Below the pieces are notes generated by a model. It worked only from the letters and a program-made list of their open reading frames with translations. It was not told where the DNA came from and ran no database searches. This document shows, piece by piece, positions 7,390-54,344 of a stretch of DNA of 64,000 nucleotides. The DNA is taken from NCBI GenBank assembly GCA_964491875.1, contig CAZBIC010000018.1, forward strand, positions 37,798-101,797. The letters run 5' to 3'. Position 1 is the first letter of the stretch, and each line of letters starts with the position of its first letter. Both the position numbers and the translations under genes were made by a program. This DNA is from an uncultured Bifidobacterium sp. (GTDB taxonomy: Bacteria; Verrucomicrobiota; Verrucomicrobiia; Limisphaerales; JADJPG01).

Positions 7390-10300
7390 TCAGAATGAAA
7401 CGTTGCCACTCTGGTTGGTGCCGAGGAAGAAGCCTCCGCCAACGTTTTGCTTTTGGAGAACCACGCCTTTGATGCTGCTTTTCTTCAGCGTATCCGGGTG
7501 AACGAACGCGCCGCTGAGCAAGCCAGAGGCGGTAGTCAGGCTGAGCGTGAGTTTGCTGGTGTTGGTCGAAGTGACGGTGAACTTGTTCGCGGAACTGAGG
7601 GCTATGATGTTCGTCATGGGGACCGTCAGATTACCTTGTTCGAGCAGCAGCGGGCCACTGGTCCAGTCCAGCGCTGCTGCGCCTTTGGCCGGGGCGACGT
7701 AGCGAGAACCAAGTGCGAGCGTTTCGTTGGTGAAGCCAGCGAGGTAAATCTTCCCGCCGGCTGTTTCCTTCTTGGTCCACAGCAACAGCCCCGGCGTGTC
7801 GTTGGTGTCATTGTTCAAGATGGTCATCCATCCGATCAGTGATCCTTTGCCTTTGTATAGATTCACGTACACAGGCGTCTGGCCGTTCGCCGCCAACGTC
7901 ATCTTCTGTGCGATGGCGGTACCGTCTGAAAGTGTTCCTTTCAATGAAACCGCTCCGGCCGTGGTGATATCCAATGTCGCTGGACTCTGTCCCACCGGGC
8001 TGGCGGCTGCGTCTTCGCAGCCGGAGAGAAGCATCGTGTATTTGCCGGAATGGTTGGTCGCTGGATTCAACTTCGCATCGAAACCGGTGCGATAGCCAGA
8101 GAGGTCGCTGGTCCAGAATTCATTGCTCACCGTGCCGACTACTTCATCGGAGCCGACAGTCAGTTGGAAGGCCAGCGTGACCGTATTGGTTCCCTTGCGA
8201 AGGATCGTCTTCGTGGCGGCGAGTGACAAATCCAGCGGGCCGCTCACGGAGTAGGCTGCACCCGCGAGCATCAATTTGCCGCTGTAAGTGCCCTTATCCG
8301 TCACGGCGAGAGTGAACGAGCCGGATTGCTCGTGCGGCGGCTCGGGCGCGTTGGGGTAGAAGAGGCCGGAGTAGTTTCCTTTCAGCGTCACGAAGGGATT
8401 GGTCACGAAGTTCGCGACGACGGAAAGGTTTGAGGCCATCACGAAGGTCAGCGTCGCGGAGCTGCTGGATTCGCTGTTCGCGAGCCAGTTGCTGAAGATG
8501 TTGCCGGGCTTCGCCGTGGCCTTCAGTGCGTAAGATTTTCCAAGTTCAAGTAACTGGCCATTCGTCGCGCCGGAGACGAGTCCGCCGCCGTTGATGGTCA
8601 AGGCGAGCGGGAGATTCACTTTGTAGATTACGAGCCGCGTGTTAGTGATCGAGAAGTTGCCGGCCGCATCGGTGGCTGCGATCTGGAACGTGTTGGTTCC
8701 CGGAACGAGACTCGCGGTGGCGCTCCAGGAGTTGGTTCCTGAGGCCGCGACCGCTTCACCGCCGTTGTGTTGTATCAGCACTGACGTGACGGCCTGATTG
8801 TCTGCTGCGGATCCGGTGAGGTTAATCGTGTTCGAGGTGACGGAAGTAACGGCTGCCGCAGGTGAGACTACGATGAGCGTCGGGCGAATCGAATCGGGAG
8901 TGGGCGGGGTCGTCACTGTCAACGTCGCTACGGAGCTGGTCACGGCGCCGGCGACGTTCGTGATGACGACGGTATAGTCGCCGGCGTTGAGCACGACGGC
9001 TGGTGTGAAGGCGAGGGTTGAGTTCGTCGCGCCTGCGACGGCTACGCCCGTCTTGCGCCATTGATAACGGAGAGGCGCAGTGCCCGTCGCGGTGACACTG
9101 AACGTTGCGTTGCTGCCGGACGTCACCGTGACGCTCTCGGGCTGCGAGGAAATGCCGGGAGCTTCCGGCGCCGGGTTCACGGTTACTGATGCGACGGAAC
9201 TGGTGATCGAACCGACGGAATTGGTGACGATGACCTGGTAATTGCCTGCGTCATTGGTCGTCAAGCTTGTGAGCGTGAGCGACGCATTGGTGCCTGTTGT
9301 GACGTTGCTGCCTTCGTGCTGCCACTGAAAGGCGAGGGTCGCGGTGCCGGAAGCAATTACACTCAACGTTATACTGCCGCCAACGGTTCCAGTTTGACTG
9401 GCAGGTTGTGTTGAAATTGTGGGCGCGACGGGGGCGGAGTTCACCGTCAGCGTCGCTACTGAACTCGTGATCGAACCCGCGCTGTTGGTAACCACCACCG
9501 TGTAGCTGCCAGCGTCGCCCGTGATCGTGCTGGGCAGAGTGTACGTCGCGCTGTTTGCGCCGGTGATGAACGTTCCGTTCTTTCGCCAGCGATATCCCAG
9601 CGTCGCGGTGCCTGCGGCAACCACGGTAAAGCTCGCGCTGTTACCAGCGGTCACCGTCTGGCCGGAGGGCTGTGATGAAATCGATGGAGGAACGAGCACG
9701 GTCAGCGTCGCGGTGGAGCTTGTGATTGAGCCGTAGCTGTTGGTGATAACGACGGCGTAGCTGCCCGCGTGGTTGGTGGTGGTGCTGGAAAGTGTCAGCG
9801 TGGAATTCGTCGCTCCGCTTACGGACACGCCGTTCGTGCGCCATTGATAGCGGAGCGTGCCTGAACCGCTTGCCACCACGCTGAATGTCGTTGTAACTCC
9901 GTTGGTCACCGTGCGGCTCGTCGGTTGTGTCGATATCGTGGGAGGTGTCGTGCCGCTGCCTCCTGCGACGATGGTTAGGGTAAGATTTTTGGTCACTGTA
10001 CGATTTGCCCGGCCGCTGTCGGAAGCCGTCAACAGGACAGTAAACACACCTTCCTCTGTTGGCGTTCCTGTGATTCGTCCGGTCGAGGTGGCGCACGCCA
10101 AGCCGGTGGGAAGTGGCACTGCGGAAAACGTGTTCGCCGTGTCAGGGCCGGTGGTGATGCGGTATGAGAACGGAAGGCCGTTGGTGCCTCTCGCTGTCGC
10201 GGCGCTGGTGATGGTTGTTGAGGCACCGGACACCGCATTATACCCACCCATCAACGCGGCGAGACCGGCGATCCAGGTCGATACGATGGCGTAGCTGGAT

Positions 10301-10395
10301 CCCGCTACTGGAGTTGCCGTCAGGAAGACGCGCGTTACTGGGAGCACCTGCAGCGCGAGCGCGAGCAGGAGCGAGGGAATGTGAGTGGCTTTCAT
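7390..10395 (-). CDS. Large surface protein: conserved N-terminal module, He_PIG domain, four I-set Ig repeats and further Ig-like/beta domains
   Basis: The N-terminus is MKATHIPSLLLALALQVLPVTRVF...AIVSTWIAGLAALMGGYNAVSGAS. The He_PIG-like segment is PLPTGLACATSTGRITGTPTEEGVFTVLLTASD. The four roughly 88-aa repeats carry L[RGA][YF][QR]W and GxY.V.[IV]TN motifs. It ends in ...GNVSF. Confidence 0.85.
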   Translation of the reverse strand: MKATHIPSLLLALALQVLPVTRVFLTATPVAGSSYAIVSTWIAGLAALMGGYNAVSGASTTITSAATARGTNGLPFSYRITTGPDTANTFSAVPLPTGLACATSTGRITGTPTEEGVFTVLLTASDSGRANRTVTKNLTLTIVAGGSGTTPPTISTQPTSRTVTNGVTTTFSVVASGSGTLRYQWRTNGVSVSGATNSTLTLSSTTTNHAGSYAVVITNSYGSITSSTATLTVLVPPSISSQPSGQTVTAGNSASFTVVAAGTATLGYRWRKNGTFITGANSATYTLPSTITGDAGSYTVVVTNSAGSITSSVATLTVNSAPVAPTISTQPASQTGTVGGSITLSVIASGTATLAFQWQHEGSNVTTGTNASLTLTSLTTNDAGNYQVIVTNSVGSITSSVASVTVNPAPEAPGISSQPESVTVTSGSNATFSVTATGTAPLRYQWRKTGVAVAGATNSTLAFTPAVVLNAGDYTVVITNVAGAVTSSVATLTVTTPPTPDSIRPTLIVVSPAAAVTSVTSNTINLTGSAADNQAVTSVLIQHNGGEAVAASGTNSWSATASLVPGTNTFQIAATDAAGNFSITNTRLVIYKVNLPLALTINGGGLVSGATNGQLLELGKSYALKATAKPGNIFSNWLANSESSSSATLTFVMASNLSVVANFVTNPFVTLKGNYSGLFYPNAPEPPHEQSGSFTLAVTDKGTYSGKLMLAGAAYSVSGPLDLSLAATKTILRKGTNTVTLAFQLTVGSDEVVGTVSNEFWTSDLSGYRTGFDAKLNPATNHSGKYTMLLSGCEDAAASPVGQSPATLDITTAGAVSLKGTLSDGTAIAQKMTLAANGQTPVYVNLYKGKGSLIGWMTILNNDTNDTPGLLLWTKKETAGGKIYLAGFTNETLALGSRYVAPAKGAAALDWTSGPLLLEQGNLTVPMTNIIALSSANKFTVTSTNTSKLTLSLTTASGLLSGAFVHPDTLKKSSIKGVVLQKQNVGGGFFLGTNQSGNVSF
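8908..9945 (-). repeat. Four tandem coding repeats of about 264 bp (I-set Ig domains)
   Basis: These are protein residues 151-496 of the 7390..10395 product. The units begin PPTISTQP..., PPSISSQP..., APTISTQP... and APGISSQP.... Each ends in ...SS.A[TS][LV]TV. Confidence 0.85.
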
Positions 10396-10490
10396 AGATG
10401 TTCCATTCTAGGTCAAACAGGTCGCTGAACTTTCGAGTAGACCTTGAGTGTGCAGCATCCATGCCGCGGACCGCCTGGTCCGTTTTCAAC

Positions 10491-11417
10491 TCACGGCAAT
10501 GTCATTCGTATTTGGTAAAGTCTTGCAGGTGCGGTGGCGCTGGACGCTGTCACGGTCGTGTTGGCGGACGATGCGCTTGCGGGCCAGTTCGTCCACTGCT
10601 GCCAGGTGGAACCTTCGGTGGGTTCCTTGAATTGAATTTCATACGCGGCACCGGACTCGCGAACAAAGCCAAGGTCGAGCTGTCCGTCATGCAACTGGAA
10701 GTTCGTGAAGCGGGGCGCCGGGACGACTGTCACCACGGCGTTGCTGCTCACGGTGACGCCGTATTGCGAGGCCACATACACATTGTAGGTGCCTGCCTGA
10801 TTGGTGGACACGGCGCCAAAGTTCAGCGAGGCGTTTGTCTCGCCCGTGATGGCTGCGCCGTCCTTGCGCCACATGTAGCGGAGGGGCTCAGGTCCGGTCG
10901 CGGACACGGTCAGGGTGACAGACGAACCTTCTGTCGTACGGGTGCCTTGGGGTTGACCGGTGACGATCGGAAAGCCGCCGTTCCGTGGTTTGACGGTGAG
11001 AATGAGAACTTTTCTGACGGTCCGATCAGCCCGCTGATTGTCCGATGCGGTGAGGAGAACGGAGTAGACTCCATTGGTCGTCGGAGTTCCAGTGATGCGA
11101 CCGACGGTGGTGCTGATGGTCAGGCCGGGAGGCAGGTTCGAGGCGGCAAACCGATTTGCTGCGTCAGGTCCAGTGGTGACACGATAGTTGAAGGCGGTCC
11201 CATTTGTGGCGGTCGCGGTCGCGGGGCTGGTGATGGTGGTCGACGCTCCTGAGACGGCGTTGTAGCTGCCCAGCAATGCGCCCAGTCCGGCCAGCCAGGT
11301 GGAAACGATCGCAAAGCTGGTTCCGGCACTAGAGGTGGCGGAGACGAATACCCGCGTGACGGGCAGGACTTGCAGGACGATGGCGAGGACGAGAGATGGT
11401 ATACGAGATGTGTTCAT
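10491..11417 (-). CDS. Surface protein paralog: conserved N-terminal module, He_PIG, one I-set Ig and a C-terminal FYRL-type domain
   Basis: The start is taken at the Met at 11417 (MNTSRIPSLVLAIVLQVLPVTRVF...AIVSTWLAGLGALLGSYNAVSGAS). Other motifs are LPPGLTISTTVGRITGTPTTNGVYSVLLTASD and LRYMWRKDG...GTYNVYV. It ends in ...ARLYQIRMTLP. Confidence 0.8.
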   Translation of the reverse strand: MNTSRIPSLVLAIVLQVLPVTRVFVSATSSAGTSFAIVSTWLAGLGALLGSYNAVSGASTTITSPATATATNGTAFNYRVTTGPDAANRFAASNLPPGLTISTTVGRITGTPTTNGVYSVLLTASDNQRADRTVRKVLILTVKPRNGGFPIVTGQPQGTRTTEGSSVTLTVSATGPEPLRYMWRKDGAAITGETNASLNFGAVSTNQAGTYNVYVASQYGVTVSSNAVVTVVPAPRFTNFQLHDGQLDLGFVRESGAAYEIQFKEPTEGSTWQQWTNWPASASSANTTVTASSATAPARLYQIRMTLP

Positions 11418-11481: not shown

Positions 11482-13188
11482 CTATGGAGAGAGCGCGGCC
11501 GTGCGGGTCGGTGTGCCAGCGACGGCTGGACTTGCTGACGTCGGCGTGAGCACCACGAACGATGGCAAGCCGAGGACTTTGAAGTAATCGAGCACTTCCT
11601 TGGTGGGAGGATGGTTCAAGCGCTCCGTCTGCAATCGCAACTGGCGGAAGCCCGCAAGGCGTTCCTTGACCGCGGGCGATTGGAACGTGGTGTGTTCCAT
11701 CGCCGAACAGTTCTTGCACCAGCTCGCCCAGAAATCGATGAACACCGGCTGTCCGCTGGCGCGTGCTTCCGCAAGGCCCGTGGCCAGTTGCTCGGATAGC
11801 GCCGCTTGAACTTCAGCCACGTCTGATTTGCCCGTGGCGGACGCGGTCATCAAACCATCCGAAGTGCGGAACAAGCTGACCGCCAGATGACCGTAGTAGA
11901 GCGCGAAGAGGATGATGAACACGCCGAAGCCGTACTTCACGCGCGCCATCCAGCGCCCGGGTTTGGGCAGGAAGGAAAGTCCCGCGCCAGCGAACGGCCA
12001 CGGCAGGCCCATGCCGATTCCCAGAAGGAACGGGAGAAACAATCCGGCAATGATGCCTTTGTTGTAGAACGTGGTCGCCTGCAGCAGCACCGAGATGACG
12101 ACTGGTGCCACGCACGCGCCGGCGAGCAACGCCGCCACGGTGCCCATCGAGTAGGCCGCGAGAAACTTGCTCTTGGAGGAACCGCTACCGCCGGAGCCTT
12201 GTCCTTGGAAACGCGAGAGATCGATCGCGAGCACGTCGAACATGCCGAGCGCGAGCACAATGAAGACGAGGGCGATGCCGAGGTTGAACCACGGCGAGGA
12301 GTTCAGCGTGCCGAATTTGGAGCCGGTGAGGACCACGACGAGGCCAAGGATGCCGTACGCTAGCGCCATCCCTGCGGCGTAAGTGGCGCCGAGGGCGAAG
12401 CCGCGTTTCTTGGAACCGGCCTGCGCGCCGGCGCCGATGATGGCGATGTTGATCGGAATCATCGGCAGCACGCACGGCGTGAGGTTCAACGCCGCACCGC
12501 CGAGGACGATCAGCAACATCGTGAGAACCACGCCCCAGAAGCCGCTGCCCGCCGCGAGACCTTCTGCCGCAGGCTGGCCCGACTTCGACTGGTCGAGGAA
12601 CTCGATAAATTCCTTCTCCTTCAAGTAACCGCTGCCGCGCGCGCTGACGGTGAAGCCTTCCGCGAGCTTGCGCCACTCGGCCGCGGATGCAGTTGCGGTA
12701 GCCGTCGGAGCCGCTTCATCGCGGAGCGCCGCCACCTTCCCATTCGGCGAGATGCTGAACTTCAGTTCCTCGGGGAAGAAACAGTTCGCTTCATCGCAAC
12801 CCTGGAAGTTGACGGTCAAAGTCGAGGCTCCCGTGGCGGAACCGGGCATGATCGCGGTGGATTCAAACGACGAGCGAAACACCTGCTTCTCCTTGCCGCT
12901 GAACTTGTCCTTAACCACGACCGGTTCCGGCAGCGCGAACGAAGGCGTTGTGTCCGCAGCGCCGCCAGTGGACCAGGCGAACGACAGCTTGTCCGCGTAA
13001 AGGATGTGATTCGTCGGGATGGCGAATGAGACGGTGACGATGCTGACCTCATTGCTCACCTGCACGCGCGGCGTGACCGTGAATGGGCTGACTTCGTCCT
13101 CTGCGCTGGCCATCGAAACAAAGGCGGTTTGGAGCAATAGCAGTCCAGCCAAGGCACGGGACACCGCTGGGATAACAATCCTTTTCAT
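11482..13188 (-). CDS. dsbD: Thiol:disulfide interchange protein DsbD/ScsB-like
   Basis: The N-terminal domain has CDEANC. The membrane core has LTPCVLPMIP and GACVAPV. The C-terminal thioredoxin has FWASWCKNC. Confidence 0.85.
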   Translation of the reverse strand: MKRIVIPAVSRALAGLLLLQTAFVSMASAEDEVSPFTVTPRVQVSNEVSIVTVSFAIPTNHILYADKLSFAWSTGGAADTTPSFALPEPVVVKDKFSGKEKQVFRSSFESTAIMPGSATGASTLTVNFQGCDEANCFFPEELKFSISPNGKVAALRDEAAPTATATASAAEWRKLAEGFTVSARGSGYLKEKEFIEFLDQSKSGQPAAEGLAAGSGFWGVVLTMLLIVLGGAALNLTPCVLPMIPINIAIIGAGAQAGSKKRGFALGATYAAGMALAYGILGLVVVLTGSKFGTLNSSPWFNLGIALVFIVLALGMFDVLAIDLSRFQGQGSGGSGSSKSKFLAAYSMGTVAALLAGACVAPVVISVLLQATTFYNKGIIAGLFLPFLLGIGMGLPWPFAGAGLSFLPKPGRWMARVKYGFGVFIILFALYYGHLAVSLFRTSDGLMTASATGKSDVAEVQAALSEQLATGLAEARASGQPVFIDFWASWCKNCSAMEHTTFQSPAVKERLAGFRQLRLQTERLNHPPTKEVLDYFKVLGLPSFVVLTPTSASPAVAGTPTRTAALSP

Positions 13189-13224: not shown

Positions 13225-13443
13225 TCAGTTGCACCCGCAACCGCCGCCACCAACACCGCGCCCGCCGGACGCCGCCTCGCGCGAGAACCACATGTGTTCG
13301 GAGAACGCGTTGGCGAGGGGCTCACGGTCTGCGCGCATCGTGTAGTCGGCGGTCGTGCCGCGCTCCCACGGATTCACATGCGTGCAACCGGAGGTGAAGG
13401 CGAGGCCCGCGACGGCACCGAGGAGAAGAAGTTTTGGTTTCAT
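13225..13443 (-). CDS. DUF4266 lipoprotein
   Basis: This is a 72-aa protein with the lipobox LAFTSGC and a C-terminal GGGGCGCN. It is a paralog of 27755..27973. Confidence 0.8.
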   Translation of the reverse strand: MKPKLLLLGAVAGLAFTSGCTHVNPWERGTTADYTMRADREPLANAFSEHMWFSREAASGGRGVGGGGCGCN

Positions 13444-13976
13444 TATTCCTTGCTGGCGACGGCGGTGCCGATCAGCGCTTCGACTTCCTTCACATATTGT
13501 TTGTGTGTCTCGGAGCCGTGGAATCCTTTGTGTACTGACGTTACTTTGCCGTCAGGGCTCACCACGAACGAGGTCGGCATTGATTTGATCGCGGCTCGAC
13601 CGACGAGCTTCTTGGAGGCGTCACGCACCACCGTGAAGGTCACCGGATGTTTCTTGAGGAAGTCGTCCATCGTCGCGCGGTCTTCGTCTAGGTTCACCGC
13701 CAGCACGACGAGGCCCTTCTTGCCGAACTTCGTTTGCAGCTCTTCCATCACCGGGAAGGAGTCCTTGCACGGTCCGCACCACGACGCCCAGAAATCGACG
13801 ATGACCACTTTGCCTTTCAACGATTCCGGCAGCTTGCCTTCGAGCTGGAACTCGGAGAGTTCGGGAAAGGTGTCGCCGACTTTGATGCCCTTGTCCGCGG
13901 CAAACGCGCCGGAGGCGGTGAGGCAGAGTGCGAGTAATCCGGCCAGAACGGCTTTTTTAACGGGTGATGTATTCAT
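13443..13976 (-). CDS. TlpA-family periplasmic thiol-disulfide oxidoreductase
   Basis: It has a signal peptide and the motif VVIVDFWASWCGPC. It is a paralog of 27970..28509. Confidence 0.85.
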   Translation of the reverse strand: MNTSPVKKAVLAGLLALCLTASGAFAADKGIKVGDTFPELSEFQLEGKLPESLKGKVVIVDFWASWCGPCKDSFPVMEELQTKFGKKGLVVLAVNLDEDRATMDDFLKKHPVTFTVVRDASKKLVGRAAIKSMPTSFVVSPDGKVTSVHKGFHGSETHKQYVKEVEALIGTAVASKE

Positions 13977-14943
13977 GGAACTTCCTGGTTTGATGACGTG
14001 CGTTTTCAGTGAGGATGCAACCTTCGGCGCCCATGTGGGTGCTGATGAGGTTCAGGCCCTCCGATGGCCCTAAAATAAAAGCGGTCGTGGAGAGGACACC
14101 CGCGACGGTGCAACTGGGAGCGATGATGGAAACTGCGCGGCAGCCGTTGTCCACCGGGCGACCGGTGCGGGGATCGAGAATGTGTCCGTAACGCCGACCG
14201 TCAGCGGTGAAACAACGAAGATAATCACCCGACGTGGCCACCGCCATGTCGCGCACTGCAACTCCCGTCCAGCACTTGCCCGGCGCATTCGGATCCTCGA
14301 GGCCGATGTGCCACGCCGGCTTCCCGGGAGCCTGGCCGAGCACGCGAACGTCCTGGCCGAAATCAATGAGCGCGTTCTTGATGCCGTGCTCAACGGCAAT
14401 CTCCGTCACGCGATCCACGGCGTACTCCTTGCCGATGCCGCCGAAGTCGATGCACATGCCAGCGCGCGGCAGGAACACCGCGCCTTTGCGACGCTGAATC
14501 TTGCGTAGGCCAACCAGCTCGCGGGCGGCGGCGATCGCGGCGTCCGTCGGGATGACAGGCGGGCTGGCCTTCCAGTCCCACAACCGGATCAATGGAAGCG
14601 CCGTGGGGTCGAACGCGCCGCGCGTGAAGAAGTAAAGTTCCTGGCAGAGCGTGAAGAAACGCTCCGTCTCCTCATCGATCTCCGTCCACTCGACGCCCGC
14701 ATTCTGGTTGATGCGACTGACCAGGCTTTCCGGCAGAAAGCGCGAATATTTCGCCTCGAACTCCGCCACCCAGCGAATCGCCGCCTGCTTGAACTGCTCC
14801 GCCGTCACGCGCGATTCGGCGCCCACGGTGATCTCGCACCGGGTGCCCATCGCGCGGAACCCAAACTTCTGCGCGCCATCGGCAGAGAGTTCCTGGACGG
14901 ACTCGCTGATTCGCTTGAGGACGATGTCAGCGGCTAGAACCAT
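13957..14943 (-). CDS. apbE: FAD:protein FMN transferase (ApbE family)
   Basis: FRAMGTRCEITV, IDFGGIGKEYAVD, GDYLRCF and GHILDPRTGRP are typical ApbE motifs. No signal peptide or lipobox is evident at the called N-terminus. Confidence 0.85.
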   Translation of the reverse strand: MVLAADIVLKRISESVQELSADGAQKFGFRAMGTRCEITVGAESRVTAEQFKQAAIRWVAEFEAKYSRFLPESLVSRINQNAGVEWTEIDEETERFFTLCQELYFFTRGAFDPTALPLIRLWDWKASPPVIPTDAAIAAARELVGLRKIQRRKGAVFLPRAGMCIDFGGIGKEYAVDRVTEIAVEHGIKNALIDFGQDVRVLGQAPGKPAWHIGLEDPNAPGKCWTGVAVRDMAVATSGDYLRCFTADGRRYGHILDPRTGRPVDNGCRAVSIIAPSCTVAGVLSTTAFILGPSEGLNLISTHMGAEGCILTENARHQTRKFHEYITR

Positions 14944-16133
14944 ACGCGCACTCCTCCCGAGAAGACGTTGGCGTTCGGATACGCGTCCTTCGCGGTCGCG
15001 TTGTCCTTGCCCACCATGTCATAGCGCTTGTAGGCGAAGTCCAGCGACACGCGATCCTTGATCTTCCACGTCGCGCTCAAGCCGTAGGTGAACGTCTGCA
15101 TCGCCGAGAGCCGGTAATCAGCGGAATAGTGTTCCGGGATCGGAACATAAAACGGATCATCCGGCGGCAGGCTGGCATCGCCGGCAAATCTCACTCCGTA
15201 GAAGCTCGCCGCAGACTGGTCAACAAATCGGAACGACGGCGCCACCACGATGTGTTTGCCGAGCTTTTGATACCAGGTCAGCGCAACCGTGTGGCTCGCG
15301 ACGTTGTAGGAGTCATGATAAAAGCGGTACACCAACTCTGCGCTGCCCTTCAACGGCGTGACAAAGTGCGTCAATGCCAGGTAGCCGATCTGTTTGTCGC
15401 GATAGCCTGGACGCTTCTCGCGGAAGAGCGTGTTCGGATCCGGATAGTCATCGAAGCGAACGCCCTTGTAGGGATCGTTCATGTAGCCATTGGCCGCGCC
15501 CAGCGTGAGGTTCGCCGTCAGAATCGTTTTCGGCCCGAGCAACTGCGTTACGCCGATCAGCACATCGCCGCTGTTCTTGTACTCTTTGTCGCCGAACCAG
15601 AAGTCCGGCATGATCGTGTCGTAGGTGTAAGCAAACCCCAGCGCCAGCGTCGTGTTCTTGTCGTTGAAATCAATCGTGTGATTCAGTGAAAAGCCAACGG
15701 ACTCGTAATCGCCTTCGAGACTGTAGGCGAGTTGAGGAGTCGTGGTATGCCGGCCGCCCCACTTGACCGGCACCTGCAAGTTTCCCGCCGTGCGTTCGTC
15801 GTCCATCGTCGCCACCGGAACGCGCTTGCTGCCGGTCGGAGCGGGACCGCCCGTTGGAGTCGCGCCGGAGATCGCGTCGAAAACCAATTCGCCGTGGACT
15901 GAAACGGCTGGCGAGACTTCGAACTCGGCGAGAACACCATGGGTTCGCACATGAATGCGCCCGCTCTCCTCGCGATAATCCTCATATTTGTAGTCGGCAT
16001 GATTCTCACCACGCACGCGTTGGGCGAGCAAGGCCTGGAGGCAGACTCCGATGAAGACGCCGAGCCAGCGTTTGATGAGTGGCAGCCTCGAGCACCACAC
16101 CGTGATGGATACGTTATGAGTTGATGACTTCAT
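14934..16133 (-). CDS. DUF3570 outer-membrane beta-barrel-like protein with a DAISGAT motif
   Basis: DYKYEDYREESGRIHV...ELVFDAISGATPTGGP. It ends in an aromatic residue (...GGVRVWF). The start is taken at the Met at 16133 (the track ORF extends to 16229). DAISGAT is encoded at 15858-15878. Confidence 0.8.
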   Translation of the reverse strand: MKSSTHNVSITVWCSRLPLIKRWLGVFIGVCLQALLAQRVRGENHADYKYEDYREESGRIHVRTHGVLAEFEVSPAVSVHGELVFDAISGATPTGGPAPTGSKRVPVATMDDERTAGNLQVPVKWGGRHTTTPQLAYSLEGDYESVGFSLNHTIDFNDKNTTLALGFAYTYDTIMPDFWFGDKEYKNSGDVLIGVTQLLGPKTILTANLTLGAANGYMNDPYKGVRFDDYPDPNTLFREKRPGYRDKQIGYLALTHFVTPLKGSAELVYRFYHDSYNVASHTVALTWYQKLGKHIVVAPSFRFVDQSAASFYGVRFAGDASLPPDDPFYVPIPEHYSADYRLSAMQTFTYGLSATWKIKDRVSLDFAYKRYDMVGKDNATAKDAYPNANVFSGGVRVWF

Positions 16134-16679
16134 TCGAATGGACTTTGCGATTTCGACATTCTTAACTTCTACGAATCGGCGTGGCGTTCGCTCGAACGCC
16201 GGGAAGGTAGCCACCCTCCGATAAGACATCGCTTAACCAAACGTTAGAGTTCACTAACGAACTGAGCGCTGTTCGTGCGTTGCATTCATGAGAACAAGAT
16301 GTGGCGAGGCAGTTCATCGTCATTCCGATCTTCATAATCGATGGAGTGGGCTAGCCGAATTCATGCCAGTGAATGGAAGTTCATGGCCGGGGCTGGTAGG
16401 CAGTCGTCGCGCGGGTTGTTGGCGGGTTCGGACACAGGATGCGGGCGGATTTCCCAGTGTGTTCTGAGATGACTCCGCCTTCATCCGCCTGCCTGAAAAG
16501 AAAATGGACACCAACGCAAAGACACTTTCTTCCAGCGATTGGATGGAAGGCGGGGCCAAATCTTCCGCGCCGGTGACGCTGGGGCCCGTTTATTAAACGA
16601 CTTTAATCATTCGGGTAAACGTGTTGAACCGCACTGCTCATTACGACCGAATTCGCAGCGGTTGCTAATCTGCGTCGTG

Positions 16680-19838: not shown

Positions 19839-19844
19839 GGGAGT

Positions 19845-21532: not shown

Positions 21533-21669
21533 GACGGTACGGGACAAAGGAGTGCAGACATTTAAATCGATACGGGAAAACAAGCGCGACTGTCGCCACA
21601 CGGCGGAGTCGAGACACGAGAAAGCCCGAGCTGTTTCCCGGAGGAATCAGTTCAGGCGGAGGCGGAGGA

Positions 21670-22257: not shown

Positions 22258-24705
22258 TCAGCGCACCTGACGCAGGCGGAAGAACTCATTCGATGCGGCG
22301 GTGGAGATGTTGACCTGGAAGGCCGTCGGCGCGGTGGAAACGCCGTTGGTGGAAGGACGCCAGTCTGGCAAGCCGTTCCAGCCTCCGGACATTTCCAGGA
22401 CGGCATCGGCGGGCGTTCTCGGCCAAGAGACGAGGCCACCGCCAGGCTTTGAAGCGATGCTGAGTCGCATGGGGGAAACGATCTCAACGACGCCGCTGGC
22501 GCTGGCGGTGGCAGAGTCGGCGCGCGCGGTCAGAGTCCAAGAATAGGTTCCGGGTTCGGCGTATTGGTGAACTACATGCCGGTTTGTGCTCACCGCCGAG
22601 GCGTCGCCGAAGTTCCACTCGTAGGTGACGTTCGCAGTCGTGTTGCTTGGACTGGCCATTGCGCCGAAAGGCACGGGCCATTCGGCAGGATACTGCGGCG
22701 GCACCAGCGCGCGGACGGCGAGCGAGTAGGGGCCTTGCGCGACGGCGACAGTTCCGGTCGCGAGTACGGAATTCTTCGAGCCGTTCCACGCGGCAAACGT
22801 GAACTTGTCGACGCCGACGAAGCCGGGATCCGGAAAGTAGGTGGCCACGGCGTTGCTCAGTCCGACGGCGCCGTGGGCCGGTTGCGAGATGATGCGTGCT
22901 GTGGCATTCGCGCCGGTGATGGGCAGTGTGATTTCGACTGCAGCGCCGCTGGTGGTATTGGTGGAGACGCTGGCGGCGACGGGTGCGACGCTGGAGTTGA
23001 CGTTCTCATTGCGCGGTCCGTTGTGGCAGTTGTAACAGCCGACGATCGCTCCCTGGAACAATCTCAGCGTCACATTGCCGCCATCGAGATCGGCCGTGAG
23101 CGTGCGCGGTCCGAGGGCGCGCGAGAGGACGGTGCCGCGGAAATCCGCTCCGTGACAAACGGCGCATACCTGATGGCCGTTGTCGCCGTTGATGGCGTCG
23201 TGATGGTAATTCACCCAGCCCTGGCCGATCGGATGCATTCCGTGCGGTCCACCCACGGCCGTGGTGGTGTTGTTCGGCATCGAGACGTGGCAGGCGGTGC
23301 ATTCCGCGGTGACGCCGCCGTGGCCCTGAATCTTCTCGTTGCGAATGTTGTCGTTGCGATGGGTGGCTGGAAATTCGGCGTGCGTGGAACCGTGACAGGC
23401 GGAGCATTGCAGCCCGCCGTGCCCGGCGGAGAAGCGATAGAGCGAGAGGCCGGCGGCGGGAGTGTTCGATTGGGTCGCGAAGATCTGGTTTGTCGCGATG
23501 CGCACGGTGCCGTTGGTTTCGAAGACGGAGGTGTAGCGAATCTGGCCGTTGTTCCGGGTGGCGTTTCCGGTGTGACAGCTCTGGCAGTTGGGTTCCATGA
23601 ACCAACCGACGCGATCGGGCGAACCGACCTGGCTCATGCTGCCGTGGCAGCTCTGGCATTGCATGGACATCGTGCCGTCGCGCTCGATCGCGCTGCCCAT
23701 CGCGCCGCGCAGGCATTTTGTTGCCGAGCCGGGATGGCATCGGTAGCAGGCGGCGCGGTGGGACGAGTGATCGAGGGCGATGTTCAGTTCCGGATCGAGA
23801 ACGGTTGCGTGCGTGGAATGAATCGACGTGGTCAGCGCCGGAACGCCGGGGAAACCGCCGGTGCCGAGAGCTTCCGAGGCGTGGCAGGTGGCGCAGAGCA
23901 CGGGCTTGCGATCTGCCACGACGCCGCGATAAAGGCCGCGAGGATTGAAGCCGTTGGCGGCGAGCGCGTCGCGGTAAACATCCCCGTGGTCGGCGAACTG
24001 CCGCTGGTCGTGCAGGCGCAGAATGTTCAGGCGGTAGTCGCGCTCCGGGTCGTTGCTCCAGACCCATCCGGCGCGGGGACGTGCTTCCGCCTGTGTTCCG
24101 GAGGCATGGCAGATGCGGCAATCCATTTCGTCGGAGACCGGGAGCACGATGTCATTGGAGGCGATCGCCGTGCCGCTGCTGTTGCGGGCGATGAGACGCA
24201 TGAGCGGATATGGATTCTTGCGGCCGGCATCATCGAAGGGCGTGATGGGAATGCCCTCAGCGCGAAACCAGTTTACCTTCTGCGCCACGCCGGGCGCGGG
24301 TCGGTTCGTCTGCTCGAACAACATCGACTGCGGGGCGTTGTTGGTGCCGGGCATCGGCCACGGCGTGAGTCCGAACTCCGGTTGCACCGCCGCGCCGTAG
24401 AGCGGCAGGACGAAGTCGTAGAAGTTGCCCTTGCCGCGCGAGGTGGAATTGAACGAACCGTCCGGGTCGGCCACGGCTTGATAGGTGACGGTGTAGCCGC
24501 TGCCATTCGTGACGAGCTTTCCCGCCGCGATCAGTTGCGCTTCGATGGTGTTGTAGGGCGGCAGAATGCTGAACACCGAGTAATCGCTGTCCATGCAGTG
24601 CATGCCGAGATTGTTCCAGCCGAGCAATTGATTGCTCGCGCCGAAGGTCGCGCCGGTCATGGCAAGAAGCGGGATTCCGAGGAGCAGATACAGTTTTGTT
24701 CTCAT
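22258..24705 (-). CDS. Secreted nine-heme c-type cytochrome with Ig-like/PKD domains and a C-terminal FYRL-type domain
   Basis: The start is taken at the Met at 24705 (MRTKLYLLLGIPLLAMTGATFG). There are nine CxxCH motifs: CRICH, CATCH, CYRCH, CQSCH, CQSCH, CSACH, CTACH, CAVCH and CYNCH. The PKD-like segment is YEWNFGDAS...HQYAEPGTYSWTL. It ends in ...NEFFRLRQVR. Confidence 0.9.
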   Translation of the reverse strand: MRTKLYLLLGIPLLAMTGATFGASNQLLGWNNLGMHCMDSDYSVFSILPPYNTIEAQLIAAGKLVTNGSGYTVTYQAVADPDGSFNSTSRGKGNFYDFVLPLYGAAVQPEFGLTPWPMPGTNNAPQSMLFEQTNRPAPGVAQKVNWFRAEGIPITPFDDAGRKNPYPLMRLIARNSSGTAIASNDIVLPVSDEMDCRICHASGTQAEARPRAGWVWSNDPERDYRLNILRLHDQRQFADHGDVYRDALAANGFNPRGLYRGVVADRKPVLCATCHASEALGTGGFPGVPALTTSIHSTHATVLDPELNIALDHSSHRAACYRCHPGSATKCLRGAMGSAIERDGTMSMQCQSCHGSMSQVGSPDRVGWFMEPNCQSCHTGNATRNNGQIRYTSVFETNGTVRIATNQIFATQSNTPAAGLSLYRFSAGHGGLQCSACHGSTHAEFPATHRNDNIRNEKIQGHGGVTAECTACHVSMPNNTTTAVGGPHGMHPIGQGWVNYHHDAINGDNGHQVCAVCHGADFRGTVLSRALGPRTLTADLDGGNVTLRLFQGAIVGCYNCHNGPRNENVNSSVAPVAASVSTNTTSGAAVEITLPITGANATARIISQPAHGAVGLSNAVATYFPDPGFVGVDKFTFAAWNGSKNSVLATGTVAVAQGPYSLAVRALVPPQYPAEWPVPFGAMASPSNTTANVTYEWNFGDASAVSTNRHVVHQYAEPGTYSWTLTARADSATASASGVVEIVSPMRLSIASKPGGGLVSWPRTPADAVLEMSGGWNGLPDWRPSTNGVSTAPTAFQVNISTAASNEFFRLRQVR

Positions 24706-24888
24706 AACCCTGGGTCCGATGATGTGACCTGCCTTGGTCGTCCCCGGCTGGGGACACGTCAGCATGTCTGTTGTGCGAGAGACTAGATCCTGCCGGGTTG
24801 GAAACGCGTTAGTCTGCGATTAGAAGGTTCTTATCATCGCGTTGCGGCTTGTGCGTGGGGCGGTGGGATGAGGTAGGATAGTGGTCGA

Positions 24889-26729: not shown

Positions 26730-27758
26730 TTACGGCGACAGTGAAACCCGGTAAAATCTCCTCGGCTCCGTGGCGACGGCTGAATCCGCGAAGCGCAGCA
26801 ATCCATCCACTACTTGATTCGTGCTCAAGGCGACCCATCGGGCCAGGTCGCTGCTGCACCAGATGACGTAGTTGGTTTGCACTGGGCCGGACGCTTCGAA
26901 TTGGAACGCTCCTTGCCCATATCCTCCGCCGGTGAGTCGGAGTTCCACGGTCAGTGGCTCCCGAATGGTCAGTCGTGCAACGGCGCTGGTGACGCTGCCG
27001 AACTGGTTGCTGGCGACCAGACGGTACCGGCCGGCGTCCGGTGGCTGCACGTCGGTGAAAGAGAGGGAAGCATTGGTGGCCGCCGTCAGCGGCAGGTCGT
27101 TTTGTTCCCAGCGAAAATGGATCGGCGGAGTCCCGATGACCTCGGCGGCAAACGCCGCGCTGCCACCTACCAGGACGGATTGATCCTGCGGCTGTGTCTC
27201 GAACACGGGCGGAGAGCTGGGCGGGTAAATCGTGATGATGGCCTCGGCCGTGGCCGGTATCGCATAGCTCAGATTACCCGCGACAAGAGTCACACTGTAA
27301 CGCCCGGCTCGCAGTGGGATTCCGGAGAGATAACCCGCCGCGCCAATGTTGGTGTTGATCGTGAGCCCTGGGGGAAGGGGAGTGCAGTTGAAGTAGTTCT
27401 TGTCGAAATCGGAGCCGGGATTGCTGACGCTGATCCGGTAGCGGAAGGACTGTCCCATCGGCTCGGCGACATCGAAGGTGGGCGTGCCGACCGGGGTGGT
27501 TCCGGAGTACTTCACCAAACCGCTGACTCCAGCGGAAGCCCCGGAGACCGCATCGTAGCCGCCCAACAGCGCGATCGCTCCGGCCAGCCAGGTGGAAACC
27601 AGCGCCCACGCCGAGGGAGCAGCGGTGACGCTTACGGAGGCAACCCGGCTGAGTGGCGCCAGCTGTAACAGGGCTGCGAGGATTAGAGACGCCGTCTTCA
27701 AGGCAATTTCAGTCTGGAGGATTGCAGCTTCATTTCGACTCGGATCTTGGCATTTCAA
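26730..27758 (-). CDS. Surface protein paralog: conserved N-terminal module, He_PIG, one I-set Ig and a C-terminal FYRL-type domain
   Basis: ...LILAALLQLAPLSRVA...ALVSTWLAGAIALLGGYDAVSGAS. Other motifs are LPPGLTINTNIGAAGYLSGIPLRAGRYSVTLVAGN and IHFRWEQND...GRYRLVASN. It ends in ...RRFYRVSLSP. The TTG start overlaps the DUF4266 stop (TTGA). Confidence 0.75.
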   Translation of the reverse strand: MKCQDPSRNEAAILQTEIALKTASLILAALLQLAPLSRVASVSVTAAPSAWALVSTWLAGAIALLGGYDAVSGASAGVSGLVKYSGTTPVGTPTFDVAEPMGQSFRYRISVSNPGSDFDKNYFNCTPLPPGLTINTNIGAAGYLSGIPLRAGRYSVTLVAGNLSYAIPATAEAIITIYPPSSPPVFETQPQDQSVLVGGSAAFAAEVIGTPPIHFRWEQNDLPLTAATNASLSFTDVQPPDAGRYRLVASNQFGSVTSAVARLTIREPLTVELRLTGGGYGQGAFQFEASGPVQTNYVIWCSSDLARWVALSTNQVVDGLLRFADSAVATEPRRFYRVSLSP

Positions 27759-27973
27759 TTACATCCGCAGCCACCGCCGCCGACGCTGCGGCCGCCATTG
27801 GAGGCTTCGCGGGAGAACCAGATGTGTTCGCGGAGGGTGAGCGTGGTGGGATCACGATCCGGCCGCATCGAGTAGTGCGCCAGGGCATCACGGTCCCACG
27901 GCTTCACGTTGACACAGCCGGCACCGGCACCCACCAGGACGATGAGGTTCAAGAGCAGCAGGAATTGTTTCAT
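27755..27973 (-). CDS. DUF4266 lipoprotein (second copy)
   Basis: This is a 72-aa protein with the lipobox GAGAGC and a C-terminal GGGGCGCN. Confidence 0.8.
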   Translation of the reverse strand: MKQFLLLLNLIVLVGAGAGCVNVKPWDRDALAHYSMRPDRDPTTLTLREHIWFSREASNGGRSVGGGGCGCN

Positions 27974-28509
27974 GGCTTCTTGGGGACGTGTTTCTCAAGC
28001 AGGTCCTCGACATGCCGGACAAACATGGCTCGGTTCTGCATGGTGCGCTCGCCGCTCTGGATGGAGACCACTTTGCCGTGGCCGTCGAGAATGTAGGAGG
28101 CGGGCAGGAGCGCGACATTGACGGTCGCCGCGAGCTTCTTTTTCGCATCGCGGACGACGGTGAAGCTGACCGGGTGCTGGCGGAGGAATTCGGTCATGGC
28201 CACGCGGCTTTTGTCCTCGTTTACGGCGATGATTACGAGCCCGCGTTTGCCCAGTCGCTTGTGCATATCTTCCATCATCGGGAACGTCCCGCGGCAAGGA
28301 CCGCACCAGCTTGCCCAGAAGTCGACGATGACGAGTTTGCCTTTCAAATCGGCGGGCAGAGTTCCTTCGAGGCCGAAATCCGCCAGAGCCGGAAAAGTAT
28401 CGCCCACTTTGATCGCGGGTTCGTCAGCCGCTGGAGCCGGCGTCGCTTGGACCATCGCAGTCGCGGTCAGCGCGATGAGCAGTTTAGTCCAGGTGCGATG
28501 GAGGTTCAT
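27970..28509 (-). CDS. TlpA-family thiol-disulfide oxidoreductase (second copy)
   Basis: It has a signal peptide and the motif LVIVDFWASWCGPC. Confidence 0.85.
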   Translation of the reverse strand: MNLHRTWTKLLIALTATAMVQATPAPAADEPAIKVGDTFPALADFGLEGTLPADLKGKLVIVDFWASWCGPCRGTFPMMEDMHKRLGKRGLVIIAVNEDKSRVAMTEFLRQHPVSFTVVRDAKKKLAATVNVALLPASYILDGHGKVVSIQSGERTMQNRAMFVRHVEDLLEKHVPKKP

Positions 28510-28521: not shown

Positions 28522-29703
28522 TTAGTAGTGGAACCGCAGTCCAACGGTGTAGACGTGAGCCTGGGCAAAGCTGCTTTGTGGAGTGCCGTCGTCCAGGCCG
28601 CGCATTGCGTAACGCTTGTAGGCGGCGTCGATGAAGAACTGCTCGCCGAGTTTCACAGTCAATCCCACTCCGCAGGTCCACGATTGCAGCTCGGAGAGCC
28701 GGTAGTCGGCGGAGTAGAATTGTGGAATCGGAACCAGCGGTGGGTTTTCGGTATCCGACGGATCGGCGTCGAAGCTGCGCCGGTAGAAGTAAGCTTCGGA
28801 CTGACGGTAGTAGCGAATGAGCGGCGAGACGGTCACCCGGCGGCCGATGGATTGAAACCATTCGAACGTCAGCGTGTGGCCGAACAGTCCGTGCGAATCA
28901 TGGTAGAAGCGGTAGGTGAATTCGGCGCTGGCGTCGATGGGCTCAAAGAACTGGGTGAGTGTTGTGGAAAGGATCTGCTTGGTGCGATGTCCGGGACGTT
29001 TCTCTGGAAAAAGCGCGTTCGGATCGGGATAACCGGTGAAGCGGAATCCTTTGTAGGGATCAGAGAGGTAACCGTTGGCGGTGCCGAGGGTGAGGGTCGC
29101 GTTGAACAGGGTGGTTGGCGTGAGCACCTGACTCAATCCGAAGAGAAGGTCGCTGGTTTCCTTGTGCTCGGTGCGGCTGCCGAGTTGAAAGCCCTTCACC
29201 TGATCAAAGTTGTGGGCGACTCCGAGATTCAGCGTCGTGTTGCGCTTGTTGAAATCGACGACGTAGTTGAGCGACAGGCCAAGGGATTTGTAGTCCTCCT
29301 CATCGCTGTAGGCGATCTGCGGCGCGACGGTGTGTCGCCCGAGCTTGAAACGCGGTTCCAGCGCGACGGCGCGGCGGATGTCATCGATCTCGGTGGTTGG
29401 CACGGCCGAACTGCCCGCGGGGGGCGGTGCGCCGGTGGGAGTGGCACCGGAGATCCCGTCGTAGACCAGCGAACCTTTCAGCATCACGGCGGGCGCAATC
29501 TTTTGGTCGAACAAGGCCGAGTGGGTGTGGACGAGAATGCGGTCGGAATCCTCCGTGTAGAGCTCGTACTTGTAATCGATGTGGTTCTGCGCGCCGGAGG
29601 GAGAACGACCTGCTAGTGAGATGGCGAGCCCGGCCAGCAACGCCTTCAGCGAGCGCGTGCGCCGCCGGGCGTCGTCAGGGATGGCTTGGGGGCAGATGCT
29701 CAT
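28522..29703 (-). CDS. DUF3570 protein (second copy) with a DGISGAT motif
   Basis: HIDYKYELYTEDSDRILV...SLVYDGISGATPTGAPPP. It ends in ...GLRFHY. DGISGAT is encoded at 29440-29460. Confidence 0.8.
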   Translation of the reverse strand: MSICPQAIPDDARRRTRSLKALLAGLAISLAGRSPSGAQNHIDYKYELYTEDSDRILVHTHSALFDQKIAPAVMLKGSLVYDGISGATPTGAPPPAGSSAVPTTEIDDIRRAVALEPRFKLGRHTVAPQIAYSDEEDYKSLGLSLNYVVDFNKRNTTLNLGVAHNFDQVKGFQLGSRTEHKETSDLLFGLSQVLTPTTLFNATLTLGTANGYLSDPYKGFRFTGYPDPNALFPEKRPGHRTKQILSTTLTQFFEPIDASAEFTYRFYHDSHGLFGHTLTFEWFQSIGRRVTVSPLIRYYRQSEAYFYRRSFDADPSDTENPPLVPIPQFYSADYRLSELQSWTCGVGLTVKLGEQFFIDAAYKRYAMRGLDDGTPQSSFAQAHVYTVGLRFHY

Positions 29704-29711: not shown

Positions 29712-30803
29712 CTAGATCCCCGCGCCGATTGAGTTCATCGGCTTGTCCTTGGCGGTTCTTTCCGAACGTTGATGGGTGGAGGGAAACAGCAGACAGCTCG
29801 CATGGATTCGACGTCCATGGTGCTGGCGAAATTTCATGGAGGGCTGGCGGCCCACCAGTGCCCGCACGACCCGCAAGCCGAGGCCAAGCGTGAGCTCGCT
29901 TGCCGTGGGGGATGAACGAACCACGTTCATCGTCATGAAATCCACGTGCTTGCCTCGACGCAGAAGCCGGACGTGGATCGTTCCGCGCCCGTGGATCAGG
30001 GCGTTGTTGAAGAGTGCGTGGAGAATCTGCTTGCAGTACTTGCCATCCGTCCCGACCACGCAGCCTGGTTCACACGTGAACTGAATCTGGCGGTCCTGCG
30101 CGTGAGCGAGCAGTTCGAAATCCTTCACCAGCTCGCCCACGAGTTCGGAAAGATCCACGTTGTCGTTTCTCCAGACGAGCCGGCCCTGACCCGCCTTCGC
30201 AATGAGCAGCGACTGCTCGACGACGTGATTGAGCCGGAGCAGTTCCTCCTGCAAATCCTCCGCCATATCGGGATCGATCTTGCCCTGGGCTTGCTCGACT
30301 TTGTGGCGGAGAATCGTGATCGGGGTGCGGAGCTCATGCGCGACCTTGGCCGCGTATTCGCTCATTTCGAGGAACGATCGCTCCAGTCGGGCCAGCATGT
30401 CATTCAAATGCCGGCTCAAACTGCGGAACTGCTCGTCACCCTCCGGCAGGTCGACGATTCGGCCGAGGGTTCCCGGATTGATGGCTTGCAGCTGACGATT
30501 GAGATTCTCGATCGGTCGCAGAGACTGGCGCGCGATGTAGTAGCCCAGCGCGCTGATGAGGACGACCAGCGGGACGGAGACCAGGAGTGACGAGCGGAGC
30601 ATTTCGCCCATGATGTTTTCCACCTCCTCCTCGGTATAGCTGCCATGCAGGATCCAGTTGGGATTGATTTTGTTTTCCCGCTCGAAGGAGTCCTTGCGCA
30701 GCTCCAGATCCAGACGCCGGTAGGTGAAAGTGATGTGGATCACCGTCACCGCCACGAAGCCGAGCGTGAACCAGAGGGTGAGCCGGGTGCGCAGCGATTT
30801 CAT
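29712..30803 (-). CDS. Sensor histidine kinase (two TM segments, short periplasmic loop, HAMP, HisKA, HATPase)
   Basis: It has the H-box VAHELRTPITIL and the ATPase motifs ALFNNALIHG and GLGLRVV. It overlaps the response regulator gene by 4 nt. Confidence 0.85.
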   Translation of the reverse strand: MKSLRTRLTLWFTLGFVAVTVIHITFTYRRLDLELRKDSFERENKINPNWILHGSYTEEEVENIMGEMLRSSLLVSVPLVVLISALGYYIARQSLRPIENLNRQLQAINPGTLGRIVDLPEGDEQFRSLSRHLNDMLARLERSFLEMSEYAAKVAHELRTPITILRHKVEQAQGKIDPDMAEDLQEELLRLNHVVEQSLLIAKAGQGRLVWRNDNVDLSELVGELVKDFELLAHAQDRQIQFTCEPGCVVGTDGKYCKQILHALFNNALIHGRGTIHVRLLRRGKHVDFMTMNVVRSSPTASELTLGLGLRVVRALVGRQPSMKFRQHHGRRIHASCLLFPSTHQRSERTAKDKPMNSIGAGI

Positions 30804-37881: not shown

Positions 37882-37897
37882 ACTTTTAACCGCCTCC

Positions 37898-50105: not shown

Positions 50106-50146
50106 ACGACGCTCTCCACGCTCAACTCATACGAATCTAAGCAACC

Positions 50147-50722: not shown

Positions 50723-50726
50723 CCGC

Positions 50727-51002: not shown

Positions 51003-51016
51003 GATTTTTTCAGCGA

Positions 51017-52782: not shown

Positions 52783-52784
52783 TT

Positions 52785-54336: not shown

Positions 54337-54344
54337 TTTCCAGT

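Follow-up and report, generated by a model that had tools for sequence, protein, structure and literature searches.

The closest described relative of the system analysed here is the DsbD/DUF3570 cluster, in which DUF3570 (PF12094), the FAD:protein FMN (flavin mononucleotide) transferase ApbE (PF02424), a thioredoxin-like protein and the CXC-containing DUF4266 (PF14086) are encoded together, with or without DsbD, for a total of four or five components and no immunoglobulin (Ig)-like partner (PMC8238504). DUF3570 has been shown experimentally to be an ApbE substrate in Chlorobium luteolum, with the function of the system left open, and ~4% of ApbE-encoding genomes had no known substrate (Meheust et al. 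2021, eLife, PMC8238504). In the 64-kb window studied here (64,000 nucleotides of contig CAZBIC010000018.1, from a member of the Limisphaerales, Verrucomicrobiota; 'the window' always means this whole stretch), the same components occur in the same gene order, and they are followed by genes for exported Ig proteins that begin with a conserved ~59-residue element, hereafter the leader module, which ends in a heptad resembling the ApbE acceptor site. The DUF3570 part of the system is thus already known, and the leader on Ig proteins is the new part. We consider it somewhat probable that the ApbE of the operon flavinylates the Ser/Thr at the junction of the leader and the He_PIG domain, which would make the module a natural linear flavin tag.

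Three minus-strand open reading frames (ORFs) in the window encode the Ig proteins. Comparison of their translations and Pfam matches to He_PIG and Ig_3/I-set agreed with a preceding sequence-only reading, which had described these ORFs and the N-terminus common to all three. Ig1 (7390..10395) is an exported protein of 1001 aa; besides the leader module and a He_PIG domain it has four repeats of the Ig_3/I-set type, Big-like domains and a C-terminal region (Ig_3, 2.9e-43; He_PIG, 7.7e-09; leader module profile, 1.3e-35). Its leader module (10219..10395, residues 1–59) includes the segments h1 (SLLLALALQVLPVTR) and h2 (AIVSTWIAGLAALMGG) and terminates in the candidate acceptor Y-NAVSGA-S59. Ig2 (10491..11417; leader module, 11241..11417, residues 1–59) is an exported protein of 308 aa whose He_PIG domain is joined by a single Ig domain and a C-terminal beta-sandwich, and Ig3 (26730..27701; leader module, 27534..27701) carries a He_PIG domain, an I-set Ig domain and a C-terminal sandwich on ~323 aa. 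The candidate acceptor heptads lie exactly at the positions first reported, namely NAVSGAS at 10219–10239 (Ig1), NAVSGAS at 11241–11261 (Ig2) and DAVSGAS at 27534–27554 (Ig3). The lengths of 1001 and 308 aa given earlier hold, whereas the third product, previously read as 342 aa from position 27758, most likely starts at the TTG at 27701, because the MKTASL... encoded there fits the family consensus. Across the 65-residue N-terminal alignment 27 positions are invariant in all three proteins, with identities to Ig1 of 72% (Ig2) and 48% (Ig3). He_PIG (PF05345) scored 36.3 bits in Ig1, 45.4 in Ig2 and 22.0 in Ig3, the last just under the cut-off of 24, and Ig_3/I-set matches exceeded the Pfam cut-off in all three. 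Since Ig2 lacks cysteine and Ig1 and Ig3 have only two each, the proteins carry no other obvious redox group; the absence of cysteine from Ig2 also led us to reject the idea that they are thiol-redox clients of TlpA or DsbD.

The profile search with the N-terminal module that the sequence-only reading had suggested was run exhaustively and independently of the motif against 1.84 billion representatives (clusters at 50% identity). It retrieved 307 representatives at E ≤ 0.001 and 152 at E ≤ 1e-10, all of them from Verrucomicrobiota, and nearly all matches lay at the very start of proteins ~300–1300 aa long. A word-indexed search with the 65-aa module returned only fragments of 57–116 aa; architecture was taken from the exhaustive representative search together with a search using full-length Ig2. 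A signal-peptide-like helix, h1, carries L-Q-x-x-P-x-x-R without variation; it is joined by a linker of variable sequence to a second helix, h2, one face of which is conserved (A-I-V-[FS]-[RT]-W-x-x-G-A-x-A-x-L-G), and the motif comes last, just before the first He_PIG strand. Among the 155 aligned module sequences from which all column counts were taken (n = 154 for the acceptor column), the near-invariant positions are L15, Q16, P19 (154/154), R22, W41, G44, G50 and the terminal motif, and conserved faces are found on both helices (L15, Q16, P19 and R22 in h1; A36, W41, G44, A47 and G50 in h2). Mature parts of several unrelated kinds continue the chain after the motif, and in this sense the leader behaves like a portable unit. 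It had no match among the Pfam or NCBIfam models, even at E ≤ 10, and a literature search found no paper describing this leader on Ig proteins; the module defines an undescribed family. Nor is it the general export route for Ig proteins in this organism, because the other Ig protein of the window, a 1061-aa DUF11/Ig_3 protein (45281–48466) that served as the control for the leader, and the module-less Ig homologues P0187 and P0188 all carry ordinary signal peptides.

The best-conserved part of the leader is its terminal motif, with the consensus [YVF]-[DHQN]-A-V-S-G-A-[ST]. The residue that precedes the heptad is Y in 52, V in 40 and F in 20 of the 155 sequences, and the columns that follow position 1 are dominated by A (140), V (143), S (149), G (146) and A (145). 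The acceptor column holds Ser in 135 and Thr in 17 of the 154 representatives (152/154), so that the hydroxyl of the SGAS serine is conserved among homologues found without reference to the motif. The pattern [DN][AG]x[ST]GA[ST] has only five matches in the six frames of the window, three in the Ig proteins and two in the DUF3570 proteins, and a relaxed version scanned over the ~485,000 six-frame residues of all fetched loci matched DUF3570 18 times, module leaders 26 times and only two other places, both in short ORFs like no reference protein. As had been noted before, and as is already published for this family, the DUF3570 proteins themselves carry acceptor sites, DAISGAT at 15858–15878 in DUF3570a and DGISGAT at 29440–29460 in DUF3570b. 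Each shows one [ST]GA[ST] site, unlike the two of Meheust et al. The acceptor of the cognate DUF3570 proteins in 18 loci reads [YFH]-D-[AGS]-[IVL]-S-G-A-[TS]-P-x-G, for example YDAVSGAT, next to YDAVSGAS in the module. The likeness spans eight residues, including positions that signal peptidase does not constrain, and on this comparison the module motif is a copy of the operon's own DUF3570 acceptor loop. The three window copies are not independent, as the Ig1 and Ig2 leaders are 72% identical, and one could suppose that recent paralogues share an N-terminus with no function beyond export. This explanation is extremely unlikely and effectively refuted by the conservation of the module over 307 clusters on differing mature parts of 300–1300 aa, by a motif that is the best-conserved part of the module and by an almost nil motif background.

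The genomic context of the module is also constrained. All fetched loci were annotated with the window's own proteins; they comprise 21 distinct loci from a genome scan and contig look-ups and ~10 more from metagenomes, of which ~30 are informative. The genome scan used a 3-sequence alignment, and because one of its patterns held the motif, the scan loci were not used alone to assess motif conservation. In every locus with upstream sequence (~30), the module gene directly follows the DUF4266 or DsbD gene of a DUF3570 operon, and the module was not met away from the DUF3570/ApbE operon in any of the ~30 informative loci. ApbE is encoded between DUF3570 and TlpA in ~20 of the 24 loci in which that interval is visible; the loci without it there are second-copy operons, such as operon 2 of the window. 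Three loci reached through similarity of the mature protein, and hence unbiased with respect to the motif, show a compact DUF3570-ApbE-TlpA-DUF4266-module unit with unrelated genes on its flanks. The co-occurrence of the module with ApbE, DUF3570 and DUF4266, raised in the sequence-only reading, is therefore borne out in these loci. With one or two module genes in each operon, the Ig proteins are the conserved last gene(s) of a Verrucomicrobial DUF3570-ApbE-TlpA-DUF4266(-DsbD) flavinylation operon, unlike the published cluster, in which no leader-bearing gene was described; the text supplementary tables of Meheust et al. (PMC8238504) contain no He_PIG or Verrucomicrobia entries. Operon 1 of the window runs, on the minus strand, DUF3570, ApbE, TlpA-like redoxin, DUF4266, DsbD, Ig2, Ig1, and operon 2, on the same strand, runs response regulator, sensor kinase, DUF3570, TlpA-like, DUF4266, Ig3. 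The earlier statement that all three genes lie immediately downstream of DUF3570/TlpA/DUF4266 modules thus applies to Ig3, which follows DUF4266, whereas Ig2 follows DsbD and Ig1 follows Ig2; that one of the two modules encodes ApbE was confirmed by Pfam in operon 1 (3e-77), and Pfam likewise recognized DUF3570, DUF4266, a TlpA-like redoxin and DsbD among the neighbours.

The surroundings of the candidate acceptor were examined in an AlphaFold2 model of Ig2 built with a 31-sequence alignment (model m75fb8fcf6589). Residues 60–308, that is, the He_PIG domain, the Ig domain and the C-terminal sandwich, are predicted confidently (predicted local distance difference test, pLDDT, ~90–97), and residues 1–59 are modelled as helices 3–27 and 35–54 at pLDDT 46–61, with residues 48–57 below 50. 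The site would accordingly be a flexible junction between h2 and the first He_PIG strand, in keeping with the proposal that the acceptor sits in a short N-terminal element rather than in a flavin-binding fold. In this respect the module resembles the engineered Flavin-tag (Tong et al. 2021; reviewed in PMC12052999), likewise a seven-residue linear motif near a terminus with no flavin-binding fold. The seven residues alone suffice for ApbE and work best near a terminus, with Asp-to-Ala and Thr-to-Ser changes tolerated at the price of a partial loss (PMC12052999); a follow-up paper on the flavin tag contains no mutational data. Unlike the synthetic tag, the module would be natural, is embedded in a larger conserved leader and prefers Ser over Thr. 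With the natural ApbE substrates, namely FMN_bind proteins (NqrC, RnfG, PplA), NqrB/RnfD, DUF2271, DUF3570, Flavodoxin_4 and FMN reductase, the module shares x-[AG]-x-[ST]-G-A-[ST] and the linkage to ApbE.

Several observations weigh against flavinylation, the first being the very lack of a fold. The natural ApbE substrates described so far all hold their flavin in a folded domain, whereas neither the Pfam domains of the Ig proteins nor AlphaFold2 and Foldseek applied to Ig2 gave a flavin-cradling fold around the site: Pfam detected no FMN_bind, DUF2271, NqrB/RnfD, DUF3570, Flavodoxin_4 or FMN_red domain, and Foldseek on the Ig2 model returned generic tandem-Ig proteins only. The second concerns position 1 of the motif. 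It is Asp in only 71 of the 155 module sequences (46%), with H (48), Q (23) and N (11) in the remainder, unlike the cognate DUF3570 proteins, all 18 of which have Asp, and a few module members break the G-A core (SAAS, SGGS, SSAS, SGCS). Asp at this position has been described as strictly conserved in known ApbE substrates (PMC12052999). Of the ApbE-type motif attributed earlier to all three Ig proteins, the [ST]-G-A-[ST] core is indeed present in each as SGAS, and the canonical Asp is missing from Ig1 and Ig2, which have Asn. This departure is not decisive, because Asp-to-Ala had just minor effects in one tested ApbE substrate (PMC12052999); a residue other than Asp lowers the support for ApbE-substrate status but leaves it standing.

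A third group of adverse points concerns the leader as a leader. S-G-A|S satisfies the -3/-1 rule and is also a textbook signal-peptidase I site, that peptidase would accept every residue that replaces A at -1 (G, S, C) or S at -3 (A, T), and the charges (K/R at 2, 5, 22 and 40, acidic only at 53) give an n1-h1-n2-h2-c layout. Moreover, the neighbouring cytochrome p835, whose signal peptide is an ordinary one, has a chance TGAT within it. All this would fit a second explanation, less likely than flavinylation although the most serious of the alternatives, according to which the 59 residues are only a lineage-specific bipartite Sec signal peptide, with h1 as an N-terminal extension, R/K40 and h2 as the n- and h-regions and Y-[DHQN]-A-V-S-G-A as the c-region. 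The mature protein would then start at Ser59 without any flavin, and the likeness to the ApbE motif would reflect the small residues that a cleavage site needs. The -3 residue is S in 149 and the -1 residue A in 145 of the 155 sequences, the folded domain starts right after the site, low-confidence AlphaFold2 helices are typical of leaders, and the Kyte–Doolittle hydropathy of h2, ~1.7–1.8, suits an h-region. A precedent exists in the extended signal peptide region (ESPR) of autotransporters and two-partner-secretion proteins, a bipartite leader of 50–60 residues that is ordered n1-h1-n2-h2-c and found on large surface proteins rich in repeats; the module, at ~58 residues, is of similar length and likewise has small residues at -3 and -1. 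Unlike an ESPR, it matches no ESPR or other Pfam/NCBIfam model, its hosts are not autotransporters, and its c-region is conserved beyond -3/-1 and copies an ApbE site. Signal peptidase indeed leaves unexplained the conservation at -2 (G, 146), -4 (V, 143), -5 (A, 140) and +1 (S/T, 152/154), the preceding aromatic residue, the eight-residue identity with the cognate DUF3570 acceptor and the exclusive linkage to an ApbE operon. It is also h1 and not h2 that has signal-peptide-grade hydropathy (2.27 versus 1.81; 1.9–3.2 in the signal peptides of the operon used as controls), and conserved faces on both helices would be unusual in a plain signal peptide. Two other topologies were rejected: h2 as a classical transmembrane anchor, because its hydropathy is below that of the operon's signal peptides and position 40 is R/K in 123 of the 155 members, and a hairpin that would keep the Ig domains cytoplasmic, on the same side as the signal-less ApbE, since h1, with ~13 residues including an invariant Pro, lacks the length for it and the charges are not distributed accordingly. 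Should the bipartite leader be all there is, it would still be new, sharply conserved and specific to one operon. Cleavage and flavinylation are, in addition, compatible with each other if ApbE acts before export.

The location of ApbE is the last point on the adverse side. No signal peptide or lipobox was found on the operon ApbE in the 14 operons examined (the window, 13957–14943, and loci L001, L007, L008, L011, L012, L014–L016 and L019–L023), unlike TlpA, DUF4266, DsbD and DUF3570, which all carry export signals; this lack also sets these operons apart from the published DsbD/DUF3570 cluster. The enzyme and its proposed exported substrate are therefore not obviously in one compartment, and either flavinylation precedes export or ApbE gets to the periplasm by another way. 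The puzzle does not single out the Ig proteins, because DUF3570, whose acceptor site is invariant, faces it too, and it raises the question of where exported proteins are flavinylated. The ApbE start codon lies inside the DUF3570 codons GTA-TGG-TTC-TAG (V-W-F-stop; ATGGTTCTAG; end of DUF3570a, 14934–14948), a 10-nt overlap that dictates the conserved ApbE start M-V-L and implies, as far as gene layout can tell, that ApbE is translationally coupled to DUF3570. One extended scenario would join these features. ApbE coupled to DUF3570 would modify unfolded pre-proteins in the cytoplasm, the bipartite leader would offer it the fold-less linear motif and hold back export until FMN is attached, and cleavage at S-G-A|S would then release a mature stalk that starts with FMN-serine; the stalk and an outer-membrane DUF3570 barrel, itself flavinylated, would form a cytochrome-independent flavin conduit that carries thiol-derived electrons from DsbD/TlpA/DUF4266 to the cell surface. 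In this complete form we regard the scenario as improbable.

A third explanation, only slightly less improbable than that scenario, dispenses with the flavin and sees in the module an element dedicated to the DUF3570 system, for docking, anchoring or sorting. Its helices would bind the DUF3570 barrel, DsbD or DUF4266, and the acceptor-like peptide would mimic the DUF3570 loop, either as a pseudo-substrate that binds ApbE or a DUF3570 partner or as a tether of the Ig stalk to the complex. Conserved helix faces and invariant positions outside the motif go beyond the seven residues that ApbE needs, the linkage to the operon is strict, and the looser requirement for Asp suggests that catalysis is under less selection here than in DUF3570. 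Proteobacterial DUF3570/DUF4266/TlpA neighbourhoods also have an extra exported partner with a short sorting-type element of its own, the JDVT-CTERM proteins (Haft preprint 10.1101/2023.06.07.544157); in this comparison of features, the Proteobacterial partner has a Cys-based signal at its C-terminus, which a CPBP protease processes, whereas the module is N-terminal, Cys-free and bears an ApbE-type motif. A profile-profile comparison of the module with the DUF3570 N-terminus (hhalign) gave a probability of 55% and an E of 1e-4, which is a weak likeness. Set against these points, the acceptor hydroxyl is kept in ~99% of members with interchange of S and T, as catalysis and not mere binding would predict, AlphaFold2 shows no confident interaction surface, and we know of no precedent for ApbE pseudo-substrates.

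The DUF3570 signal peptides (...LALALQLLQLQRGRA|EN...; window 16040–16133, L010, L012 and L014) resemble module h1 (...LALALQVLPVTRV...), and YDA[IV]SGA[ST] comes after both. The module and the DUF3570 N-terminus may share an origin; derivation of one from the other is not claimed, the hhalign result being suggestive at most.

Returning to flavinylation of the junction, the operon ApbE would move FMN from FAD onto the final Ser/Thr of the motif (Ser59 in Ig1 and Ig2), provided that, as we infer, the leader segment bearing the motif is exposed to the enzyme; the base of the Ig stalk would then carry a flexibly tethered, covalently bound flavin. Because ApbE recognition does not need them, the conserved faces of h1 and h2 suggest an extra role in docking, anchoring or delaying export. 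A flavinylated stalk and the flavinylated DUF3570, probably an outer-membrane barrel, could lie at the far end of an extracytoplasmic electron path, with DsbD, TlpA and the CXC protein DUF4266 feeding it in that order, although the direction and purpose of electron flow are conjectural. The claim that the Ig proteins are an undescribed class of ApbE substrates survived the computational refutations named in the sequence-only reading and is supported in part: it is strengthened by operon linkage, by a near-constant acceptor hydroxyl, by mimicry of the DUF3570 site and by a site free of any fold, and weakened by an Asp present in fewer than half of the family, by a leader whose end doubles as a peptidase site and by an ApbE without an export signal. 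If it is correct, the module would be the first natural 'flavin tag' and a fold-less class of substrate for an enzyme whose recognized targets are a few folded domains that bind flavin, and the Verrucomicrobial DUF3570 system would gain a fifth core component. An Ig stalk that should fluoresce would also provide a handle on the function of that system in Verrucomicrobia, which are abundant in soil and wastewater.

For DUF3570 itself, a search of the PDB found no relative, and an AlphaFold2 model built from two sequences (pLDDT 50), used for secondary-structure content only, was all-beta with ~16–18 long strands after the signal helix, which fits, without establishing, an outer-membrane barrel. 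DUF3570a (14934..16229, minus strand, as are the operon genes that follow) has a signal peptide, a predicted all-beta barrel-like fold and a C-terminus ending ...VWF; its true start is likely M33 at 16133, because the longest ORF has a 32-residue non-hydrophobic extension. After it in operon 1 come the TlpA/ResA-like periplasmic thiol-disulfide oxidoreductase (13443..13976; signal peptide, CxxC), the DUF4266 lipoprotein (13225..13443; lipobox ...FTSGC, C-terminal GCGCN CXC motif) and the DsbD-family transmembrane thiol:disulfide electron transporter (11482..13188; DsbD_N, DsbD_TM and thioredoxin-like domains). Operon 2 is headed by an OmpR-type response regulator (30800–31474) and a HAMP/HisKA sensor kinase (29712–30803), together 29712..31474, a pair that also heads the operon in L001, L017 and L029; DUF3570b (28522..29703), the TlpA-like redoxin (27970..28509) and the DUF4266b lipoprotein (27755..27973) follow.

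A multihaem cytochrome is sometimes inserted in or beside the operon. In the window it is the c-type cytochrome p835 (22258..24765, minus strand; ~835 aa, 9 CxxC pairs, a PKD domain and a C-terminal sandwich); its orthologue in L001 (6283–8850) is part of the operon, flanked by DsbD and the module genes, and that in L017 (7477–9972) is followed by a further module gene. This placement hints at an electron-transfer role for the whole neighbourhood. Ig2 (10491–10720), Ig3 and the L001 cytochrome, although unrelated exported proteins, end alike in a beta-sandwich of ~70 residues whose tail reads ...W...(R/L)(F/L)Y(R/Q)(V/I/L)...P-stop, and which may be a lineage-specific sorting or anchoring domain.

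Right after the Ig3 gene, in convergent orientation, the window encodes a reprolysin-like (M12B) metallopeptidase with a Big_7 domain (24889–26715, plus strand). Such a peptidase recurs beside an Ig3-type module gene in L017 (5364–7328), L029 (8039–10171) and L035 (2209–4044), is absent from most loci, and could process the Ig protein or its leader. We rejected the idea of a dedicated leader protease in the operon, as none is conserved: only a few loci have the reprolysin-like peptidase next to the operon, and a single one has an S49 peptidase there. The contigs of L008, L010, L012 and L020, with clear Limisphaerales-type operons, are titled 'uncultured Bifidobacterium/Bifidobacteriaceae', probably because binning or labelling went wrong.

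Between the two DUF3570 operons of the window (16680–21601, minus strand) lie genes for an AcrB-type resistance-nodulation-division (RND) transporter (1052 aa), a 142-aa ORF and an outer-membrane efflux protein (OEP, 443 aa), and an RND gene flanks the DUF3570 operon in L025 and L003 too. Further along, on the plus strand, positions 33956–48466 encode an extracytoplasmic function (ECF)-type sigma factor (186 aa) and, after it, proteins of 1122 aa (VWA/YfbK_C) and 2386 aa and the 1061-aa DUF11/Ig_3 protein mentioned above, and positions 49551–64000 hold an ordinary NADH:quinone oxidoreductase (nuo) operon, whose NuoB-, NuoF- and NuoG-like subunits were confirmed by Pfam.

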